Below, piece after piece: positions 3 to 11,609 of a stretch of 64,000 nt of DNA. Both the position numbers and the translations under genes were made by a program. The notes under the pieces are model-generated. The model was not told the origin of the DNA. It searched no databases and saw only the letters and a program-made list of their open reading frames with translations. Source of the stretch: Bacteroidia bacterium (GTDB lineage: Bacteria; Bacteroidota; Bacteroidia; UKL13-3); assembly GCA_019695215.1 (NCBI GenBank), contig JAIBAK010000007.1, positions 1,149 to 65,148 of the forward strand. Direction: 5' to 3'. Each line of letters begins with the position of its first letter. The stretch's first letter is position 1.

Positions 3-2676
<2,674 letters not shown>

Positions 2677-2691
2677 AATAAACTATAGCAC

Positions 2692-2726
2692 AAAAAAGCC
2701 CGGTGAGATTCATCGGGCTTTTTTAA
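2692..2726. terminator. Bidirectional rho-independent terminator shared by eno (+) and the convergent minus-strand operon
   Basis: AAAAAAGCCCGGTGA-GAT-TCATCGGGCTTTTTT has a 9-bp stem with an A6 run before it and a T6 run after it. It overlaps the stop codon of the minus-strand gene ending at 2723. Confidence 0.75.
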
Positions 2727-3406
2727 TCCTTTATTGGGATTAAACGGATATTGTCTATATCAATAAGAATAAAGCTTTTCACGGTCCCTTTCATCTTCTT
2801 AAATGTAATAATATCACCGTTAGGAATACCGCCAATATATATGAAATCTTGCCGTTCGTTAAGGAAAAATGTGATTGTATCTGTAAGTGTCACCCATTTT
2901 CTTTTTGGGAAAAAAGAGCTGTCGGGCGTATAAAGTGGATGATGAGTGCCACATGAGTTTTCCTTCCCAAATTCATTTGGATTTTTTAACAATCCATAAT
3001 TCAGTAGCCGATAGTTTAATTTATTGGTAGCGTACTTTGAATCCTCAGAAGTTCGCACATCTATTTTCAAAACAAAACGCCTTGGCCCAGAATTCCCCCA
3101 ATTTGTATCCAGAGGAAGTACTATATCCCCTTTTAAGTTTGCATCAGCATGTTTGTATAAACTGTTTACATGCCATAAATAGATAACCGAATAAACTTCC
3201 CCGTCCGAAGCTGTATCAGATACTGGTTTACCTTTACTTTCTTTGACAAAACCAGCAGGCCCGTTTATATAATAAATGGGCCCATTAACAGAATACATCT
3301 CCGCATTTTCCACGTAAGTTTCAAAGCTCCCATTCTTCACAATATTCTGCGATGTTACACTAAGACTGATCATGCAACAAAGAAAAACTGCTAAGGTTTT
3401 TACCAT
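2723..3406 (-). CDS. Hypothetical secreted protein with an N-terminal signal peptide. It is the last gene of cassette 1 and a candidate immunity protein for the upstream effector-like gene.
   Basis: MVKTLAVFLCCMISLSVTSQ is a signal peptide. Its start overlaps the end of the upstream gene by 7 nt. No recognisable catalytic motif. Confidence 0.55.
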   Translation of the reverse strand: MVKTLAVFLCCMISLSVTSQNIVKNGSFETYVENAEMYSVNGPIYYINGPAGFVKESKGKPVSDTASDGEVYSVIYLWHVNSLYKHADANLKGDIVLPLDTNWGNSGPRRFVLKIDVRTSEDSKYATNKLNYRLLNYGLLKNPNEFGKENSCGTHHPLYTPDSSFFPKRKWVTLTDTITFFLNERQDFIYIGGIPNGDIITFKKMKGTVKSFILIDIDNIRLIPIKD

Positions 3407-3969
3407 CTTGTATTAGTAATTATTCTACCAATTTGTTTAAATCTAGTGTTAGAAGTGCCACTACAAAAAATCTGAATCTCCACCTTTGATACATTATCAA
3501 CAATAAACTCATTACTCTGTTCAACCTCAGATTGTGTAATATTAGTAATTGTAAAGCCCCCTGCCCATCCGCTTCTTGGTTTCTGTGTTATTATACCACG
3601 AGAAAACTGTGATCTAACATTATCAGCCCGATTCTGTGATAAATTAACTCGCCTTAATAAATCTGCTAGCCCTTCCGGTGTTTCATAATCAATAGTTGCA
3701 GAAAGAACCATTTTACTCGTTATATAAACAGCATCTTCACTAAGGATAAGGGAATTGAGCGTGTTCAGACCTGCCAGTTGAGTCTCATTAAGAATAGCAC
3801 TCCAATTTGGAAAATTTATAGACGCTATTGGCAAGGGGTCAAGGGGTCTTGTCAAAAAATTTCCATCCCTATTTTCTGGTGCTATCCCAAAATCAGCCTT
3901 AAAGCTAGAGAGCCAATCTTCTGATAACCTTCCCCCTTTTGCCCACGGATTTTTAAATTCGAATGCCAT
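3400..3969 (-). CDS. Effector-like protein E1. It has the conserved N-terminus MAFEFKNPWAKGG shared with E2 and E3, followed by a unique C-terminal region of unknown function.
   Basis: Its N-terminal 12 aa and the junction with the upstream gene (stop, 2 nt, ATG) are conserved with the genes at 8268-8831 and 9797-10324. No signal peptide. Confidence 0.6.
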   Translation of the reverse strand: MAFEFKNPWAKGGRLSEDWLSSFKADFGIAPENRDGNFLTRPLDPLPIASINFPNWSAILNETQLAGLNTLNSLILSEDAVYITSKMVLSATIDYETPEGLADLLRRVNLSQNRADNVRSQFSRGIITQKPRSGWAGGFTITNITQSEVEQSNEFIVDNVSKVEIQIFCSGTSNTRFKQIGRIITNTRW

Positions 3970-3971
3970 AA

Positions 3972-5654
3972 CTATGCGGGATTTGAGGTTGGATTACAAT
4001 TACACCCGCTTTGAGGCACATCGCAACAATCAGTGAATACCTTTTTGTATAAGGTGGCCTTTTCAGTTGCATCGGTAAGCCCTTCTATTATATCAATAGC
4101 TTGTTGTTTAGCTACGTTTTCAAGATTAGCCTGCACAACAGCTGCATCCTGTAACTTGAGGTTGAAGCAATCCAAAGCCTCGCCCTGTCCCAGCAAAGCA
4201 TCAACAATTACTGAGTCAGTAGGTAACACGCGGCTTTCTACACTTTTTATTATACCATTAACTGTAATCCCCTCAGCCGTCATAGAAAGTCCTGTGTTTT
4301 TACGGAAGTAATCTTCAGTAAATTTCACACTACCTGTAGCGGAATCGTAAACATTCTCCGTTCTTTTTTCATAAAAGGTTTGCCTGGTTCCGGTGTAATC
4401 ATATACACTGTAATATTGGTCAACTATATCCTTAAAAACGTTGTCGGCATCTGTGGTGTTATTGAAAATACTTTTAAGTAAGGCTAATAATCCATCAACT
4501 TTAACTACTTGTTTAGTTTCTTCATACCCATTGGTATAAACAAATGAAACATCATCCAGATAAGTTATTGTAATGAGTTCCTGATTGAGTTGACGAAAAA
4601 CAAAATTGAGTACCCGACTTTTGTTTATATTTTCCAATATCCTAACAATACTGGTTTCGGTAGAGGTGGTTTCTGAGGTAGAGGTCTCTGTATTGATATC
4701 AAGTTTTCGGGATACCACTGATTTCTGAACCTGCTTTGATATTGCATTTGCCAATAATTTAATGTTCTCAGCTCGCAGCCCATTCATTGTAACTCCATTG
4801 GAGGAGCTACTCGAAAAGGAAGCTGCTCCTTTGCCACCGAACAATGGTATATTTAAGCCTGAACCGCTCTGTGAAGCCATATTATATCCCCCTGACTCTG
4901 TATGACTTTGAAGGCTGTCAATCTGAAGCATCTTTTCAAGCTCCTGGGTACTATCATTTGTTAAAGAATCAATAACATTCTGATAGTCTTTTTTGCTTTG
5001 GGTTGTTTGCTTATAACTCTTAATACTGATGGTGGTTTTCTCGCCCGGCAGCAATGTAAAAGTCTTAACAGTTTCTCCCGCACCGTAATCTCCAAGGTAA
5101 GTATTTACTCGATAATGCTCTATTACTGTAAGTCTTGGAACTGCACTAGCTGGTTGTTGCCTGAATTCAATTTTTTGATTGCCCATAATATCCACAACTG
5201 TTACAGGCATTCCATAAAGAGATTGAACTGCAATGCTACTTACAGCTTGTCCGGCAATAGTATAATCAGCAACCGGACTTGAAGTAGGGGCTGATTCAAA
5301 ACCCACCAAACTTGCAAGTGAATACTGTGGCGCAGCACTTACTGTTGGAGTTTCCTCTTCTGAATTTACATTTACAATATTGGGTGTGCCTACAGCTATA
5401 AAGTTATTTGCCATACGCGCGGTAATAGTTGAAGCATCCAGTCCGGCAACTATATCATAGTAGTTACCGCTAGGGGGCGAATCAAAACCTGCACCAGTTT
5501 TAAAATAGCTGCTGTTCACATCTAAGGGAATGTAAGCATTGGCAACAAACCCATTTGTTTGCGGAATGTTGTAATCAAGTTTGGGTGTTGAACCTGTTCC
5601 CCAATCGGTCATTGGATCTTTGTTGATGCAGCTTGATGGTGTTGTTTCTGGCAT
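3972..5654 (-). CDS. Hypothetical 560-aa protein. No signal peptide, Ser/Thr-rich, with a Cys-rich C-terminus ...LYKKVFTDCCDVPQSGCNCNPTSNPA.
   Basis: Long ORF with coding-like composition. Its last ~33 codons are duplicated in the 51-aa fusion ORFs at 8834-8989 and 10327-10482. Confidence 0.6.
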   Translation of the reverse strand: MPETTPSSCINKDPMTDWGTGSTPKLDYNIPQTNGFVANAYIPLDVNSSYFKTGAGFDSPPSGNYYDIVAGLDASTITARMANNFIAVGTPNIVNVNSEEETPTVSAAPQYSLASLVGFESAPTSSPVADYTIAGQAVSSIAVQSLYGMPVTVVDIMGNQKIEFRQQPASAVPRLTVIEHYRVNTYLGDYGAGETVKTFTLLPGEKTTISIKSYKQTTQSKKDYQNVIDSLTNDSTQELEKMLQIDSLQSHTESGGYNMASQSGSGLNIPLFGGKGAASFSSSSSNGVTMNGLRAENIKLLANAISKQVQKSVVSRKLDINTETSTSETTSTETSIVRILENINKSRVLNFVFRQLNQELITITYLDDVSFVYTNGYEETKQVVKVDGLLALLKSIFNNTTDADNVFKDIVDQYYSVYDYTGTRQTFYEKRTENVYDSATGSVKFTEDYFRKNTGLSMTAEGITVNGIIKSVESRVLPTDSVIVDALLGQGEALDCFNLKLQDAAVVQANLENVAKQQAIDIIEGLTDATEKATLYKKVFTDCCDVPQSGCNCNPTSNPA

Positions 5655-5692
5655 GATAAGTTGGTTTTAAATTAGTAATTAAGAATAGATAA

Positions 5693-6682
5693 TTATGAAC
5701 TATAGTTATGAATAACTTTATGATTAAACACATAGCCGTTGCGAGTGGTAACGGTTACGTAATACAATCCGGAGCTTGAAATAAAAGGGAGTGCCAGCAT
5801 ATTTCTATTATCAATATGGGAAGATTGAACAACCCGTCCCATTAAATCTGTGATAACTATTTCAGTAATTGCATCCTGTTCACACAAATATTTTATTTCA
5901 AGATTCTCCATTACCGGGTTAATAATTTCAGGTATGACAGAACTTATTGGTGAAGAAACTCCTGTCGGGTTAGCTTTACCTGCCAAAATATTTATCTCCG
6001 CCTGTGTTAATATCCTGCTATAAAATCTGGCTTCGTCAAGTTTACCGTCATACCAATGCCCCATATTTGTATTAGTTAAACTCTGTGGTGTCGCATCGGG
6101 CACTTTCCCCGCGAACGAAACAGTCTTCACTTTTGCAGCGTCTATATACAAATCAATTACGGAAGTACTTCTGTTCACGTTTATTGATAGATGATGCCAC
6201 TGATTATCTAAAAGGGCTGTATTGGTATAGAGCAATTCCGCCTGGTCCGACAGAAAACTTGCTCTAATAATAAAATCAAATTGCCCCTTTACAAACTCAT
6301 TTGCAATTAAACTGACTCCCCTGTCATAAGGAGCATCAGTAGCATATAAAAAATCAATTTCATTTTGGTCATTTGTCATAAACCAGAATGAAATATTAAA
6401 ACTTGTAGAAGTACCAAAGGAGAGTGCTCCGTTAGAAACATTCATTTTTATTGCTGCATCTGATGAAAACAGCAATGCCTGATTTAGGTTGCTTTTTCTA
6501 TCGTAGGTGAAGTTAACTGTCCCCCCGCTGGCTAAAAATTTTGTAACCGTTGCCCCATTACCGGAAGCATCAGAAAGACTATTTGTAAACGGCAAATACA
6601 TAACGAGGCCCTGAGTGAGATCCTGACAGAAAGCATATCCTGAAATTGTCATTAAGATGATGACCAAATAAACTCTTTTCAT
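5693..6682 (-). CDS. Secreted LamG / concanavalin-A-like lectin domain protein with a C-terminal sorting domain for type IX secretion (T9SS)
   Basis: Signal peptide MKRVYLVIILMTISGYAFCQ. The LamG-like core includes DNQWHHLSINVNRSTSVIDLYIDAAKVKTV and GKLDEARFYSRILTQAEI. The C-terminal ~70 aa (...GLYYVTVTTRNGYVFNHKVIHN) match the T9SS CTD pattern. Confidence 0.7.
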   Translation of the reverse strand: MKRVYLVIILMTISGYAFCQDLTQGLVMYLPFTNSLSDASGNGATVTKFLASGGTVNFTYDRKSNLNQALLFSSDAAIKMNVSNGALSFGTSTSFNISFWFMTNDQNEIDFLYATDAPYDRGVSLIANEFVKGQFDFIIRASFLSDQAELLYTNTALLDNQWHHLSINVNRSTSVIDLYIDAAKVKTVSFAGKVPDATPQSLTNTNMGHWYDGKLDEARFYSRILTQAEINILAGKANPTGVSSPISSVIPEIINPVMENLEIKYLCEQDAITEIVITDLMGRVVQSSHIDNRNMLALPFISSSGLYYVTVTTRNGYVFNHKVIHNYSS

Positions 6683-6783
6683 AAGTACAAACAGTTAATA
6701 TTTTACCCAAAGTTGAAAATAATATTTCACATATGCAACTTTTTTCTCAAAAATTGTTAACTAAGATATACGGCCATTACGAT
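6626..6783 (-). promoter_or_regulatory. Conserved upstream block, copy 1. It covers the putative promoter/operator, the 5'UTR and the first ~19 codons. The 18-nt core AAAATYGTYAACTAAGAT lies at 6749-6767 (plus strand).
   Basis: Near-identical to 8933-9090 and 10426-10563. The core motif recurs at 11148-11165. Each copy sits 62-85 nt upstream of a minus-strand ATG. Confidence 0.55.
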
Positions 6784-6848
6784 AAATCCATCCTGCACAT
6801 GGTGGGGCTATGAGTTTAGGTCAATAACAAAACGGCCAGGCTTTACTA

Positions 6849-7520
6849 CTACTCCTTCCATGCTTGCTGAACTTCCTTCAACGCTAATTCCATTAACAAA
6901 AAAATTCGGTTAACAGTCCCCCTTAATTTTTGCAGTTCATCAGGCAGCTCTTTTACGGGATGTGGTCCATCAAAATAAAAATACCAAAAACTTTTTATCT
7001 CCTTATCACTACGCTTAGCTAATAATTCCAGGAAAACACTAGTATCAGATTTTAATTTCTCCTGCATTGCGTGCTGAAAATAACCCACACCATCAGCATA
7101 CCACCTGCCATTGATACTTATATCAATCATTCGGTTGTAATATTGATTTTTGGGTATTACAGTTAATTTAAAAAATGCTTCTACATATAAATAAGCTTTG
7201 TTATATAAGGGGCTGTTGAAATCAGAAACCGGCTCTCCTAAAGGGTCTTTGTCTGAGTATCCAAATAAATGGTTGAACAAGTTAAACGTATTTGGAAAAG
7301 CAGCAAAATATTCTTGTTGATACTTAATTGTATATGGTGAGGAAGATACTTTTTGATATGCCCTTTTTAATTGCTCCGCTTTTTTTATTCCGTTTAACTG
7401 AGTATCCGCAACATTTGCATTTGCAATATTTCGGCAAGTTATATTCGCTGTACAACTTGAAAACAATTGACTAAACAATACTATAATAAATAATTTCATA
7501 TCATCGAATGGGTAGGTCAA
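6849..7520 (-). CDS. Hypothetical lipoprotein or secreted protein and candidate immunity protein. The real start is probably the internal Met at 7499 (MKLFIIVLFSQLFSSCTA).
   Basis: Signal peptide with a lipobox-like SSC. It lies between effector-like gene E2 and the upstream block of cassette 1. Confidence 0.5.
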   Translation of the reverse strand: MTYPFDDMKLFIIVLFSQLFSSCTANITCRNIANANVADTQLNGIKKAEQLKRAYQKVSSSPYTIKYQQEYFAAFPNTFNLFNHLFGYSDKDPLGEPVSDFNSPLYNKAYLYVEAFFKLTVIPKNQYYNRMIDISINGRWYADGVGYFQHAMQEKLKSDTSVFLELLAKRSDKEIKSFWYFYFDGPHPVKELPDELQKLRGTVNRIFLLMELALKEVQQAWKE

Positions 7521-7557
7521 AAATGGTCATCGTTGGAACGAGTTAAGATATTTCTAC

Positions 7558-8256
7558 CTATTGAGGTTCTACTTTGAACCACCATTTAGATTTAGGATGC
7601 CCGCTTGTAATCTTAAAAACTAATTTGCTTACTCCCTTCAAAGGTATAGTTACAGTTTGTATACTGTTAGTATTAGTCATTTCTGTTTTATAAAGTTGTA
7701 ACCCATTTTTATCTTCTACTATCAGCTGGTCTGATTCATTGTAAAAATGATAACTCAACCTTATCGCTGTTACTTTGCCAGTGAGTTGCAGTTCTTTTAC
7801 GCTGTTTCCTTCGCCAAGATAGGAATCCTCTTTATTAGCATCTGGAATTCTTTCATACTTTTCAACGATACACTCTCCATAATTAAAACAGATTTTTAGT
7901 AATTTACCTGTACCTCCTTTTATATACAGGGTAAGTTCCGCACTGGAATCGTGAAAGGTGACGTTCGTAGTAAACTTCCTGTTCTTTAAGGTTATTTTTT
8001 TATCCTTGGGATCATATATCCAATTCCCTTGCTCTATTGTTGGAATTTGGGTAGTAACACTGTAACAATCATTAAGAATTTGGTAATTGCCATCAGGATT
8101 AAATACTAACATATCAGGACACTCAACTGCTTGCTTTTTACTATTCTCAACACCCTTATATTGCCATCTACCGATTATTTTATGAGAAGCATTTTGAGCA
8201 TAGGCAATACCGCTTATCAACAATGCAATCAGAATAAAATTTACACCTGTTTTCAT
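7558..8256 (-). CDS. Hypothetical secreted protein with a signal peptide. It lies immediately downstream of the M23 effector and is a candidate immunity protein.
   Basis: MKTGVNFILIALLISGIAYAQ is a signal peptide. It is co-oriented with E2 at an 11-nt spacing. Confidence 0.55.
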   Translation of the reverse strand: MKTGVNFILIALLISGIAYAQNASHKIIGRWQYKGVENSKKQAVECPDMLVFNPDGNYQILNDCYSVTTQIPTIEQGNWIYDPKDKKITLKNRKFTTNVTFHDSSAELTLYIKGGTGKLLKICFNYGECIVEKYERIPDANKEDSYLGEGNSVKELQLTGKVTAIRLSYHFYNESDQLIVEDKNGLQLYKTEMTNTNSIQTVTIPLKGVSKLVFKITSGHPKSKWWFKVEPQ

Positions 8257-8267
8257 ACTTATATCGA

Positions 8268-8831
8268 TTAGGGTCCAAAGAAATATGGTGTTGGGTCAAC
8301 CCATTTGCCTCCTATCATTACCTGAACATGAATATGTGGTGTTATATCCTTGGGATAACCCAAATCTCCTAAATTAGCGGCCGTTCCTATTAATGTTTTT
8401 CCCCCAATTACAGTGTATGGACTCCATGCATTGATTTCACTAGGAATATTTACATATAAAATTCTCACTTTCTCAATCTCAATTGCAGAATCTGAAGGTG
8501 TAATATCTATCATTGGTTTTCCAGATGATGAGCCAATATAATTTACCGCTTTCCCAGTTACTGGAGATACTAAATCTTGCCCAACTATGGTTAAAATATC
8601 TATACCCATATGTTTACGGGCACCTCCGCTACGAGGAGCACCAAAGTGACCATTCCCATATGCATCCTGCCCCCTCAAAGCACCTCCACTTGGGTTGAAT
8701 AATAAGCTTACATCCGTGATATTCCTTTTAATAGGTATAACTGCCCCCTCTAGTGCCGTACCATTTATTCCAAACCATTTATCAAACTCTCTGTTACCTT
8801 TTCCCCAAGGGTTTTTAAATTTCAATGCCAT
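8268..8831 (-). CDS. Effector-like protein E2. Conserved N-terminus MALKFKNPWGKGNREFDKWFGINGTALEG... fused to a C-terminal M23 (LytM/lysostaphin-type) metallopeptidase domain.
   Basis: H-x-x-x-D motif (RKHMGIDIL) and an HxH motif in TPHIHVQV, aligned with the M23 consensus GPHLHFEV, at the spacing typical of peptidase M23. N-terminal 36 aa almost identical to E3. No signal peptide. Confidence 0.7.
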   Translation of the reverse strand: MALKFKNPWGKGNREFDKWFGINGTALEGAVIPIKRNITDVSLLFNPSGGALRGQDAYGNGHFGAPRSGGARKHMGIDILTIVGQDLVSPVTGKAVNYIGSSSGKPMIDITPSDSAIEIEKVRILYVNIPSEINAWSPYTVIGGKTLIGTAANLGDLGYPKDITPHIHVQVMIGGKWVDPTPYFFGP

Positions 8832-8833
8832 AT

Positions 8834-8989
8834 TTATTCGGGATTTGAGGTTGGATTACAATTACACCAGCTTTGAGGAACATCGCAACAATAAGTAAAC
8901 CCCTTTTTGTATAAGGTGGTGGCATGATTAGTACAGAAAAGAGAACCCGAAATTGTAATTAAAAGCATGACCAAATAAATTCTTTTCAT
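8834..8989 (-). CDS. Unannotated 51-aa fusion ORF: MKRIYLVMLLITISGSLFCTNHATTLYKKGFTYCCDVPQSWCNCNPTSNPE. It joins the signal peptide of the LamG gene to the Cys-rich tail of the 560-aa gene.
   Basis: Read on the minus strand. ATG at 8989, TAA at 8834-8836, then AT, then the E2 ATG. Residues 1-19 match the LamG N-terminus and residues 24-51 match the 560-aa C-terminus. Its first 81 nt are identical to the ORF at 10327-10482. Confidence 0.6.
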   Translation of the reverse strand: MKRIYLVMLLITISGSLFCTNHATTLYKKGFTYCCDVPQSWCNCNPTSNPE

Positions 8990-9090
8990 AAGCACAAACA
9001 GTTAATATTCTATCCAAAGTTGAAAATAATATTTCACATAAGCAACTTTTTTATCAAAAATTGTCAACTAAGGTATACGGCCATTACGAT
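8933..9090 (-). promoter_or_regulatory. Conserved upstream block, copy 2, with the core motif at 9056-9074
   Basis: Aligned with copies 1 and 3. It sits upstream of the fusion ORF and E2. Confidence 0.55.
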
Positions 9091-9168
9091 CGAGAACTCC
9101 CCCGGCAATATATGTGGATGATATTTGTTTACATGCATTAATCTCGGATTATTCAAGCTTTGCTGCTA

Positions 9169-9768
9169 TTACCAAGTGTAATTTTTTATATCAAACCTTT
9201 CAAGAAAGGTTATTTTCCATCTTCCTTTTTCCTTTTTCGCTTTAACAAGGTAATCAAAATCGCCTCCCCATGTCCAATAATAGGTTGCAAAGTCATTATC
9301 CAATTTAATATTCTTAATCATTAATCTACTCCATATATCCGAAGGGTAATCCTGACAGTTACACCATTCGTCAGCATCATTTCCGTAAGGAGGTAATTCT
9401 CCTTTATAGTATTTAACCTGGTTATCATTTAGTTCTTTGTCTAGGTACAACGCAATTTTCATGTAGTTATCTATAAATTCCTGAGTAAAGAAATTTGTTT
9501 GGGATAATTCTTCCATTCTGGATTTCTGAACAAGCCAATCAATCCGCTCATAAATGCTGTCATTATCACTTGTAAGAGGGAAATCTCTATTGGTGTCAAC
9601 CTCATGCCACTTCAACAAATTCTTTGTTAAAGCCAAAAGTTCTAAACTATCAGTAGATAACTGTATATAGGCATGGCTATTTGTACCTGTGTCTTTCTGA
9701 GTATGTACACAACTAAAACTAATTACAAGTATTGAAACTGCTGATACCAGGCCATTAAATAATTTCAT
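9169..9768 (-). CDS. Hypothetical lipoprotein and candidate immunity protein for E3
   Basis: MKLFNGLVSAVSILVISFSCVHTQ is a signal peptide with a lipobox Cys. It lies directly downstream of E3. Confidence 0.55.
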   Translation of the reverse strand: MKLFNGLVSAVSILVISFSCVHTQKDTGTNSHAYIQLSTDSLELLALTKNLLKWHEVDTNRDFPLTSDNDSIYERIDWLVQKSRMEELSQTNFFTQEFIDNYMKIALYLDKELNDNQVKYYKGELPPYGNDADEWCNCQDYPSDIWSRLMIKNIKLDNDFATYYWTWGGDFDYLVKAKKEKGRWKITFLERFDIKNYTW

Positions 9769-9796
9769 ATTCTATTCCTCCTTAAAGGGTAAGTGT

Positions 9797-10324
9797 TCAT
9801 GAGTTATTGTCAGTCCAACGGAATATTGCGTACATAGAATTTCTATACCCACTTCCGGGAAATTCGTTTTTCTCCTTAAAATCACTTAACCATTGATTAC
9901 CGTTGTACATATCAATATGACCATACTGGCTACCCCCGGGATATGGTTGAAACACCCTTATATCTCCTTTAATAGGTGAATAATTTGTACTACTTAAAGT
10001 ATTGAATCCCCAGCCCTGCAAAAAAGGTCCATAATCTTTTGCGGATACTGGATGAGGGTTTGTATTTATACCGCCCGCTTCTAAAGCTAATCTGACATAT
10101 TTAGCACATGCGTGCTGAGAAACTACTTTAGCATTATTGTCTAACCAGTTTACAGCTTTGTCAATATTGAAACTCGATTGGAATCCACCCACATTAACAT
10201 TACCACCATCCGAAATATCTCTTTTAATAGGTATAACTGACCCCTCCAATGCCGTACCATTTATTCCAAACCATTTATCAAACTCTCTATTACCTTTTCC
10301 CCAAGGATTTTTAAAGGAAGCCAT
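9797..10324 (-). CDS. Effector-like protein E3. Conserved N-terminus MASFKNPWGKGNREFDKWFGINGTALEG... with a C-terminal putative CHAP/NlpC-P60-like Cys-His hydrolase domain.
   Basis: A candidate catalytic Cys (SQHACAKYV) and a candidate His (GDIRVFQ...GHIDMY) sit at the spacing seen in CHAP amidases. The domain call is tentative. Confidence 0.55.
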   Translation of the reverse strand: MASFKNPWGKGNREFDKWFGINGTALEGSVIPIKRDISDGGNVNVGGFQSSFNIDKAVNWLDNNAKVVSQHACAKYVRLALEAGGINTNPHPVSAKDYGPFLQGWGFNTLSSTNYSPIKGDIRVFQPYPGGSQYGHIDMYNGNQWLSDFKEKNEFPGSGYRNSMYAIFRWTDNNS

Positions 10325-10326
10325 AA

Positions 10327-10482
10327 CTACAGAGAATTTGAGCTGGGATTACAATTACACCCACTTTGCGGCACATCGCAACAATCAGTAAACACCTTTT
10401 TGTATAAGGTGGTGGCATGATTAGTACAGAAAAGAGAACCCGAAATTGTAATTAAAAGCATGACCAAATAAATTCTTTTCAT
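10327..10482 (-). CDS. Unannotated 51-aa fusion ORF, copy 2: MKRIYLVMLLITISGSLFCTNHATTLYKKVFTDCCDVPQSGCNCNPSSNSL
   Basis: Same architecture as 8834-8989. The stop TAG at 10327-10329 is followed by 2 nt and then the E3 ATG. Confidence 0.6.
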   Translation of the reverse strand: MKRIYLVMLLITISGSLFCTNHATTLYKKVFTDCCDVPQSGCNCNPSSNSL

Positions 10483-10563
10483 ATGCTAAACTTTAAGATT
10501 ACAGTCAAAGTTGAGAATAATATTTCACATTCGCAACTCTTTTTAAAATCGTCAACTAAGATG
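10426..10563 (-). promoter_or_regulatory. Conserved upstream block, copy 3, with the core motif at 10545-10562
   Basis: Aligned with copies 1 and 2. Confidence 0.5.
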
Positions 10564-10612
10564 CATATATTGTTACAAGCGTTATTTTGACCAATACCTC
10601 AAAAATGTATGC

Positions 10613-11086
10613 TTATTTATTAGGTGGTAGAATAAAATAATTAGTTAAAAAGATTCTGAAGCATTCAATTTGAGCACCCACTGCTCCAATATCCGCATCA
10701 GTATTATAAAAAGAAGGATTTTGCACCACACTACAAAACGACTCATAAAGCGACCTGTGAGAATTGGTATTATATTGTTGTTCAACTTGAGCAAAAACAG
10801 AGTCAAGTGTATTTTTTTTAATCAACCTGACTAACGGGGTGCCCTTGTTATAAAGAGAAAGATATAAGTCAAAGTACTCCTCATGAATAGTATCTCCATT
10901 AGTTGAACTTTTGTGATAAACTTTGAACAAATCTTTAAATACATTGAACGACTTAGTATCCCTTTCTAATTTTATTGCAACTCTGGGAAGTAGCGTATCA
11001 TTCAAGCAAACGAGTCTTTCCTGCGGATAGCAGATAGCTATATGGTGCAAACTGCCAAAAAGGAAGATGAAAAATAAATGCTTCAT
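10613..11086 (-). CDS. Hypothetical secreted protein with a signal peptide, preceded by a fourth copy of the AAAATCGTCAACTAAGAT motif. Possibly an orphan immunity-like gene.
   Basis: MKHLFFIFLFGSLHHIAICYPQ is a signal peptide. The motif at 11148-11165 lies 62 nt upstream of the ATG. Confidence 0.5.
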   Translation of the reverse strand: MKHLFFIFLFGSLHHIAICYPQERLVCLNDTLLPRVAIKLERDTKSFNVFKDLFKVYHKSSTNGDTIHEEYFDLYLSLYNKGTPLVRLIKKNTLDSVFAQVEQQYNTNSHRSLYESFCSVVQNPSFYNTDADIGAVGAQIECFRIFLTNYFILPPNK

Positions 11087-11222
11087 TTTAATCCCATAAA
11101 GTGAATAATACTAATGCAAGCTACTAAAAGAGCAGCGCATTTCATATAAAATCGTCAACTAAGATAGACGCCCTGTTTATAACCCAATGCCTGAGTTAAA
11201 GCAATAACCTTAATTTTGCAAA

Positions 11223-11522
11223 GTGCAGGTAAGGGAAAAAATACAGCAGCATAAGTTCAAAATCATCACTCTGGTGTTTTTGGTATGGATGACTTTTTTT
11301 GATAAAAACAATTTTATCGACCAGTACCACCTGCGTGCGCAGTACCAAAGTATTGTTGACGAACGCGATTATTACGTTACCCAGATTGAGCAGGCCAAAA
11401 AAGAACGCGAACAGCTTTTTACCAATAGCGAGGCTCTTGAAAAATTTGCCCGCGAAAAATACCATATGAAAAAGGATGATGAAGAAGTCTTCATCATGGT
11501 GCAGCCTGAAAAGAAAAAATAA
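11223..11522 (+). CDS. ftsB: Septum formation initiator family protein (FtsB/DivIC-like)
   Basis: A single TM helix (IITLVFLVWMTFFDKNNF), then a coiled coil, then the conserved LEKFAREKYHMKKDDEEVF tail. Confidence 0.7.
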   Translation: MQVREKIQQHKFKIITLVFLVWMTFFDKNNFIDQYHLRAQYQSIVDERDYYVTQIEQAKKEREQLFTNSEALEKFAREKYHMKKDDEEVFIMVQPEKKK

Positions 11523-11609
11523 TTCCACTTTTTACCGGTTTTAGTTTTGGTTGTTTATCCGGCAAAATGAAACGACATTTGTTTTGTTTCTTTTTTAACA
11601 CAACTCATC

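Follow-up and report, generated by a model that had tools for sequence, protein, structure and literature searches.

We think it fairly probable that the 51-codon open reading frame at 8834-8989 (minus strand) of the window, by which we mean the whole 64,000-nucleotide stretch of DNA analysed here, is a recombination remnant that gives auxiliary effector-immunity modules an upstream region and leader, and is not a peptide gene; the peptide that it encodes is probably not selected. The ORF alone is a minor feature, and its anatomy marks a module boundary of a widespread and unannotated gene pair, in which a 560-aa protein with a Cys-rich tail (the carrier) precedes an effector gene.

The frame, hereafter mini-ORF 1, was present on the minus strand as the original prediction had described it, and translates as MKRIYLVMLLITISGSLFCTNHATTLYKKGFTYCCDVPQSWCNCNPTSNPE. 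Its parts, the region before it and its two parent genes are as follows:

8834-8989, minus strand: mini-ORF 1, 51 codons, with ATG at 8989 and stop TAA at 8836-8834
8989-8933, minus strand: mini-ORF 1 codons 1-19, from the LamG signal sequence
8932-8921, minus strand: mini-ORF 1 codons 20-23, the junction TNHA
8920-8837, minus strand: mini-ORF 1 codons 24-51, the carrier tail
8990-9090, minus strand: mini-ORF 1 upstream region, promoter/leader-like (putative promoter), a repeat of the LamG upstream region at 6683-6783
5693-6682, minus strand: LamG-domain protein, 329 aa, with a Sec signal and a T9SS C-terminal sorting domain; donor of the first 19 codons and the upstream region
3972-5654, minus strand: 560-aa carrier with the Cys-rich tail, without a signal peptide; donor of the mini-ORF tails

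Residues 1-19 correspond to the start of the LamG protein (13/19 residues and 47/57 nt alike), and residues 25-51 correspond to the C-terminus of the 560-aa protein, with 23 of the 27 residues alike. By DNA alignment the tail matches 3972-4055, and the tract 8933-9090, which takes in approximately 100 nt 5′ of the mini-ORF 1 ATG, is 89% identical with 6626-6783 over 158 nt. These matches are far beyond chance, and they bear out the original prediction of an in-frame chimera that joins the 5′ end of LamG to the 3′ end of the carrier, approximately 2.7 kb (6682 to 3972) having been collapsed. The ORF listing also contains an upstream GTG start, which would extend the frame to 8834-8995 (53 aa), and the plus-strand ORF at 8695-8898 that had been mentioned alongside the minus-strand frame does exist (67 aa, TTG start) and overlaps, in antisense orientation, the start of the 187-aa gene and the 3′ half of mini-ORF 1. 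Neither mini-ORF 1 nor the second copy described below is among the gene calls of independent assemblies, the exact mini-ORF peptides were absent from a collection of 15 billion proteins, and the genes on either side have consecutive NCBI locus tags, with no slot for mini-ORF 1.

Read along the minus strand, the array runs from the DivIC gene through a partial copy of the upstream box and a 157-aa gene to two auxiliary units and finally to the main locus. Auxiliary unit 2 consists of an upstream region, mini-ORF 2, the 175-aa gene and the 199-aa gene; auxiliary unit 1 of an upstream region, mini-ORF 1 and the 187-, 232- and 223-aa genes; and the main locus of an upstream region, LamG, the 560-aa gene, the 189-aa gene and the 227-aa gene. 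The features other than those listed above are:

11140-11173, minus strand: partial third copy of the upstream box, TCTATCTTAGTTGACGATTTT, preceding the 157-aa gene
10613-11086, minus strand: orphan immunity-type gene, 157 aa, a signal-peptide ORF with no effector
10483-10570, minus strand: mini-ORF 2 upstream region, a more diverged copy
10327-10482, minus strand: mini-ORF 2, 51 codons, with the same junction as mini-ORF 1
9797-10324, minus strand: auxiliary effector 2, 175 aa, FKNPW module followed by a Tae4-family amidase; ATG 2 nt past the mini-ORF 2 stop
9169-9768, minus strand: presumed immunity gene of effector 2, 199 aa, with a lipoprotein-like signal; role suggested by position
8268-8831, minus strand: auxiliary effector 1, 187 aa, FKNPW module followed by an M23-like metallopeptidase; ATG 2 nt past the mini-ORF 1 stop
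7558-8256, minus strand: presumed immunity gene of effector 1, 232 aa, with an N-terminal signal sequence; role suggested by position
6849-7520, minus strand: 223-aa ORF, TTG start, with a lipoprotein-like signal, between the 232-aa gene and LamG
3400-3969, minus strand: main-locus effector, 189 aa, with an FKNPW N-terminus; ATG 2 nt past the carrier stop
2723-3406, minus strand: presumed main-locus immunity gene, 227 aa, with a signal sequence

The 175-, 187- and 189-aa proteins have in common an N-terminal MAxxFKNPWxKG module, and each of the three starts exactly 2 nt past the stop of the preceding tail-bearing ORF. The effector domains of the two auxiliary modules (M23-like and Tae4-like) are unlike the 189-aa main effector. 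The 187-aa protein contains the M23 motifs HxxxD (KHMGID) and HxH (HIH) and gave weak matches to LECT2, which has the M23 fold (E 0.008), and to a PHROG metallo-endopeptidase (7e-4). The 175-aa protein matched PDB 4hz9 (5.9e-21, residues 57-166), which we take to be the Tae4 amidase in the Tae4-Tai4 complex, and also a phage endolysin family in PHROGs; it had no Pfam match at E 0.01. Among the short Tae4-like proteins closely related to the 175-aa effector, four (P0135, P0143, P0148 and P0172) carry the JGI label ‘type VI secretion system secreted protein VgrG’, and the same Tae4-like amidase domain may be used by T6SS loci in other Bacteroidota.

Around these effectors, the 232-aa gene stays beside the 187-aa effector in the sibling contigs L092 and L093. 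The 223-aa ORF is missing from these otherwise collinear loci and has no homologue in any locus compared; it may be an orphan immunity gene. Homologues of the 157-aa gene directly follow effectors in L065, L020 and L016, and because of this position we read the 157-aa ORF as an orphan immunity gene.

The carrier belongs to an uncharacterized family of more than 1000 members, found also in contigs of Alphaproteobacteria, Acidobacteriota, Actinomycetota and Saccharibacteria, and its tail is its most conserved part: the motif YKKVFxxCCDVPQSGC is present in nearly all of 120 homologues, and Y536, K537, K538, F540, C543, C544 and Q548 are invariant in an alignment of 39 sequences. A Cys residue near the N-terminus, C9, is also invariant. 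In 80 genome loci the gene after the carrier typically starts with FxNPW, W9 being kept in at least 90%. The effector domains that could be recognized after the carrier were Tae4 (five loci, by Pfam), Amidase_3, Peptidase_M15 and Glucosaminidase, all of them peptidoglycan hydrolases. As read from these loci, the family has a two-gene polymorphic arrangement, in which a conserved carrier is followed by a variable putative cell-wall effector and a presumed immunity gene.

The carrier had no match in Pfam, NCBIfam, PADLOC or PHROGs or in a PDB profile search, and our literature searches, which were not exhaustive, found no description of the family. Its AlphaFold model has a pLDDT of 69. An aerolysin-type or Cry toxin fold was considered and rejected, the best Foldseek matches against the PDB having E values of 0.02 or weaker and TM scores below 0.1; the BFVD structural match was one uncharacterized giant-virus (Yasminevirus) protein at E 4e-8. 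LamG was likewise rejected as a core component, because outside the close clade of the window it does not precede the carrier.

A second chimera, mini-ORF 2, which the original prediction had missed, has the translation MKRIYLVMLLITISGSLFCTNHATTLYKKVFTDCCDVPQSGCNCNPSSNSL. The first 87 nt of the two mini-ORFs (ATG to AAAAAGG) are identical, whereas their flanks are only approximately 75-90% identical, and 8827-8993 is 90% identical with 10320-10486 as a whole; we tentatively read the 87-nt identity as recent conversion or duplication. The core of the mini-ORF 2 tail equals the carrier tail at the protein level, despite four to five synonymous differences. Searches of the region for regulatory features gave little: a scan for sigma-70 promoters and terminators, with a model that is not suited to Bacteroidota promoters, found nothing above shuffles, and Rfam over 2500-11600 returned only two sub-threshold small RNA matches, at 2686-2778, unrelated to the mini-ORFs.

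Sibling strains give the arrangement a polarity. In L001, L002, L087 and L089, whose carriers are 88-92% identical with that of the window, DivIC leads directly to LamG and there are no extra cassettes, and in L092 and L093 one extra cassette (187 aa plus 232 aa) is found at the same place; to judge from these siblings, the cassette-bearing arrangement is the derived state. The orthologous small ORF of L092 and L093 has the identical junction, TTCTGT-ACTAATCATGCC-ACCACCTTATAC. As the junction FC-TNHA-TTLYKK is common to mini-ORF 1, mini-ORF 2 and both of these orthologues, the deletion would have happened once, before the strains split and before the duplication in the window. A degenerate pattern of this junction had 0 matches in the metagenome_contigs collection, which is incomplete, as the JGI contig L092 itself carries the junction. 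Just beyond DivIC, L092 also encodes a 52-aa fragment (66-224, minus strand) with a weak match to a DDE transposase.

In both L092 and L093, which are independent assemblies, TTA has become TAA at codon 10, so that the product would have nine residues and the stop lies approximately 125 nt before the effector ATG, yet the genes behind it are intact, with pN/pS values between L092/L093 and the window of 0.16 for the 187-aa effector and 0.26 for the 232-aa gene. A frame-disrupting difference of this type was what the original prediction had named as evidence that would count against selection on the ORF. The mini-ORF pairs have pN/pS values of 0.30-0.45, compared with 0.11-0.26 in neighbouring genes, an estimate that is confounded by recombination. 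In addition, three residues in the tail of mini-ORF 1 are ones that the family scarcely uses: among 114 members, the G occurs in none at its position, the Y likewise in none and the W in one, and one of the three replaces the nearly invariant V539.

Within the unit, different stretches resemble different relatives. The mini-ORF 1 upstream region is 88% identical with the resident LamG upstream region and 71% with the L092 orthologue, and 64 of 72 nt of its tail are alike with the resident 560-aa tail compared with 54 of 72 with the orthologue, whereas the 87-nt 5′ block differs from L092 at three positions and the effector behind it at 14 of 561. From these mosaic identities it follows that both flanking tracts would have recombined with the main locus or some other allele, and that the unique stretch between them was inherited vertically; at the level of sequence, short-patch gene conversion with the main locus is shown. 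The suggestion that the ORF might be a recombination scar accordingly agrees with the chimera, the common junction and the mosaic identities. Of the further suggestion, that it marks homology arms used for cassette exchange, the part that stands is short-patch conversion of both flanking tracts, and no swapping of effectors was shown. Because the spare cassettes, each with an upstream region of its own, lie upstream of the main locus in direct orientation, loss of the carrier would result from a simple crossover at the tail.

The history that we propose would start from a copy of the whole locus (upstream region, LamG, carrier, effector and immunity gene) that lost approximately 2.7 kb in a single in-frame deletion, whose endpoints lie just past LamG codon 19 and near carrier codon 530. 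Left over, directly before an intact effector gene, would be the last 28 or so carrier codons joined to the signal-sequence codons with their start codon and upstream region. This collapsed unit would then have spread, so that it now precedes both the M23-like and the Tae4-like module in the interval from the DivIC gene to the main locus. The remnant would act in cis, as the spare effector and immunity genes' own upstream or leader region; it would keep the native stop-2 nt-ATG junction with the effector, and it would serve as a short homology tract for gene conversion with the main locus. In this account we infer that the upstream regions act as promoters, that the auxiliary modules are expressed, that the downstream ORFs confer immunity and that the system as a whole is antagonistic. 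Against a plain scar stands the fact that in both window copies the fusion is in register and uninterrupted.

Tail remnants also stand before extra effector genes in other genomes. In L016, L048, L055, L074 and L094 they are plain 3′ fragments, and in L054, a rumen Bacteroidales MAG, there are three 44-codon ORFs in which carrier codons 1-28 are joined in frame to the last 16:

L054, 7032-7223: collapsed-carrier ORF with the carrier's upstream region before it
L054, 13042-13305: collapsed-carrier ORF with the carrier's upstream region before it
L054, 14457-14672: collapsed-carrier ORF with the carrier's upstream region before it

Two of the L054 remnants lie entirely inside the contig, and the effectors that follow these two differ. 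All three copies are open, have mostly synonymous differences (pN/pS 0.08-0.35) and lack a Sec signal, and their structure marks them as an independent collapse of the same kind. Either translation of the L054 remnant matters, or its arms were imported from full-length alleles under selection. The open frames in the window and in L054 could thus reflect selected translation of the remnant, and import of the arms by recombination would give the same open-frame pattern.

The alternative that survives best is a translated leader, in which ribosomes would read the mini-ORF, stop 2 nt before the effector ATG and pass on to the effector by termination-reinitiation coupling, the peptide being a by-product. 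The stop-2 nt-ATG spacing on which it depends is identical at the three window units and at ten other loci (L001, L004, L005, L008, L010, L012, L014, L016, L055 and L094), and similar coupling would presumably follow the carrier gene in the main locus. The collapse in the window clade and the independent one in L054 each begin at a genuine start codon and stay in frame, although two in-frame events are expected by chance in about 1 in 9 cases, and the folded RNA of leader plus ORF is less structured than shuffled controls (z +1.5). However, the gap between carrier stop and effector start reaches up to about 77 nt elsewhere in the family, and in L092 and L093 translation would end at codon 10 while the effector is still under purifying selection. 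Because selection and import are inseparable in L054, we retain a translated leader as a possible but rather unlikely explanation.

A broader form of this idea would make the mini-ORFs selected, translated elements of an undescribed antagonism system, required to express or to dock the auxiliary effectors. The unit of such a system would consist of the 560-aa carrier with its Cys-rich tail and of peptidoglycan hydrolases that have an FxNPW module and are encoded by genes of their own. They would do so through termination-reinitiation or through binding of the tail peptide to the N-terminal module of the effector, and the in-frame fusion of start codon and tail would then have arisen at least twice, in the window clade and in L054. 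We regard this too as doubtful, and a remnant acting in cis as the better account.

Much less likely is the possibility, raised by the original prediction, of a real secreted Cys-rich peptide, that is, a functional product of approximately 32 residues with four Cys, exported through the Sec signal, that could be a periplasmic docking partner or chaperone for the FKNPW module, a decoy or a bacteriocin-like factor. The N-terminus of mini-ORF 1 does have a KR n-region and a hydrophobic core, with a hydropathy profile resembling that of the LamG signal, the four Cys residues of the tail are all kept in both window mini-ORFs and in L092, and collapsed carriers that keep the tail recur. Against it stand the nonsense allele of the sibling strain and the atypical residues of the mini-ORF 1 tail, and the L054 remnants are made without a Sec signal. 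The Q residue that follows the presumed LamG cleavage site, between AFC and QD, is lost in the mini-ORF, and the native tail sits on a carrier without a signal peptide and would therefore work in a different compartment. A phmmer search of 1.84 billion representative proteins found no homologue with the signal-peptide-plus-tail architecture, the real matches covering the tail half only. One of them, the 53-aa P0181, is a tail remnant that lacks a signal peptide and is likewise separated from the following ORF by 2 nt; the top match, P0179, proved to be a tandem-repeat translation unrelated to the family.

That repeats were mis-joined during assembly or binning is conceivable for a MAG in which the locus has three copies of repeats of approximately 150-280 nt, but we consider it extremely improbable, since the separate assemblies L082 and L083 are exact for both mini-ORFs and L084 and L085 for mini-ORF 2, ENA and Logan assemblies give the order 157-aa gene, mini-ORF 2, 175-aa gene, 199-aa gene and mini-ORF 1, and another strain (L092/L093) has the same junction.

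Among known systems, the closest parallel is with orphan modules. Those of Rhs loci retain part of the conserved main gene, with which they recombine (PMC3967940), and by analogy the window modules can be described as Rhs/CDI-type orphan cassettes of a variant kind, belonging to an undescribed system of carrier and effector. As with the Rhs and CDI (cdiA-CT/cdiI) orphans (Koskiniemi et al. 2014, PMC3967940; Ruhe et al. 2016, PMC4927057), extra putative toxin-immunity pairs adjoin a full-length main gene, the window modules (7558-10482) lying directly upstream of LamG and the carrier (3972-6682), and a displaced fragment of a conserved part of the main gene stands before each pair. This fragment, the last 28 or so carrier codons in both mini-ORFs, is met again in L016, L048, L054, L055, L074 and L094. 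In both types of system the fragment provides a tract of homology for recombination with the main gene, and the content of the array varies between sibling strains.

The differences are equally clear. The toxin in the window is not a C-terminal fused domain, but a complete separate gene with its own ATG and a full FKNPW module, and the spare effectors consequently need no fusion; the modules lie upstream of the main gene; and the remnant continues in frame from a genuine start codon and signal sequence, with an upstream region before them, whereas Rhs orphans ‘usually lack translation initiation signals’ (PMC3967940). The carrier family, too, has no relationship to Rhs or CdiA, and no solved structure matched it significantly.

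Auxiliary T6SS modules with Tae4 amidases resemble the window in combining peptidoglycan amidase or peptidase effectors with presumed immunity proteins directed to the periplasm. However, no Hcp, VgrG or PAAR gene is adjacent at this locus, the window-type effectors have a short FxNPW module and follow a 560-aa carrier, and the occurrence of the carrier family in Acidobacteriota, Actinomycetota and Saccharibacteria argues against dependence on a T6SS. The acquired interbacterial defence and orphan immunity arrays of Bacteroidales are similar in that immunity-type genes without a cognate effector adjoin the locus, the 157-aa gene being the clear case here and the 223-aa gene a possible one, but differ in that the two window modules keep intact effectors and that no integrase or recombinase was seen in the window array.

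On the evidence of the remnants, the tail and the start of the effector gene behave as one recombining unit, and strains stock spare pairs of effector and presumed immunity gene beside the main locus. The carrier-effector pair is a defined candidate for a new way of delivering interbacterial toxins in Bacteroidota, for which the tail provides a simple cassette marker, and the mini-ORFs are a caution for small-ORF discovery, as a deletion scar can take the form of an in-frame ORF that starts with a signal peptide.

Two further observations concern the wider family. In five proteobacterial loci (L031, L032, L041, L059 and L069) the carrier ends in an acidic CCEGEE-type tail and is preceded by a conserved protein of approximately 360 aa starting MADPT, and our scan detected no FxNPW effector gene downstream of the carrier; these loci seem to contain another version of the carrier system. 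In the complete Myroides genome of L064 (7514-16569), the carrier-effector pair lies among ORFs that include a ParA-like one (KGGVGKST) and a TraG-like one of 701 aa, and the N-termini of these neighbours resemble what we take to be conjugative-transposon genes of Bacteroidota, which suggests that this pair is carried on a mobile element.
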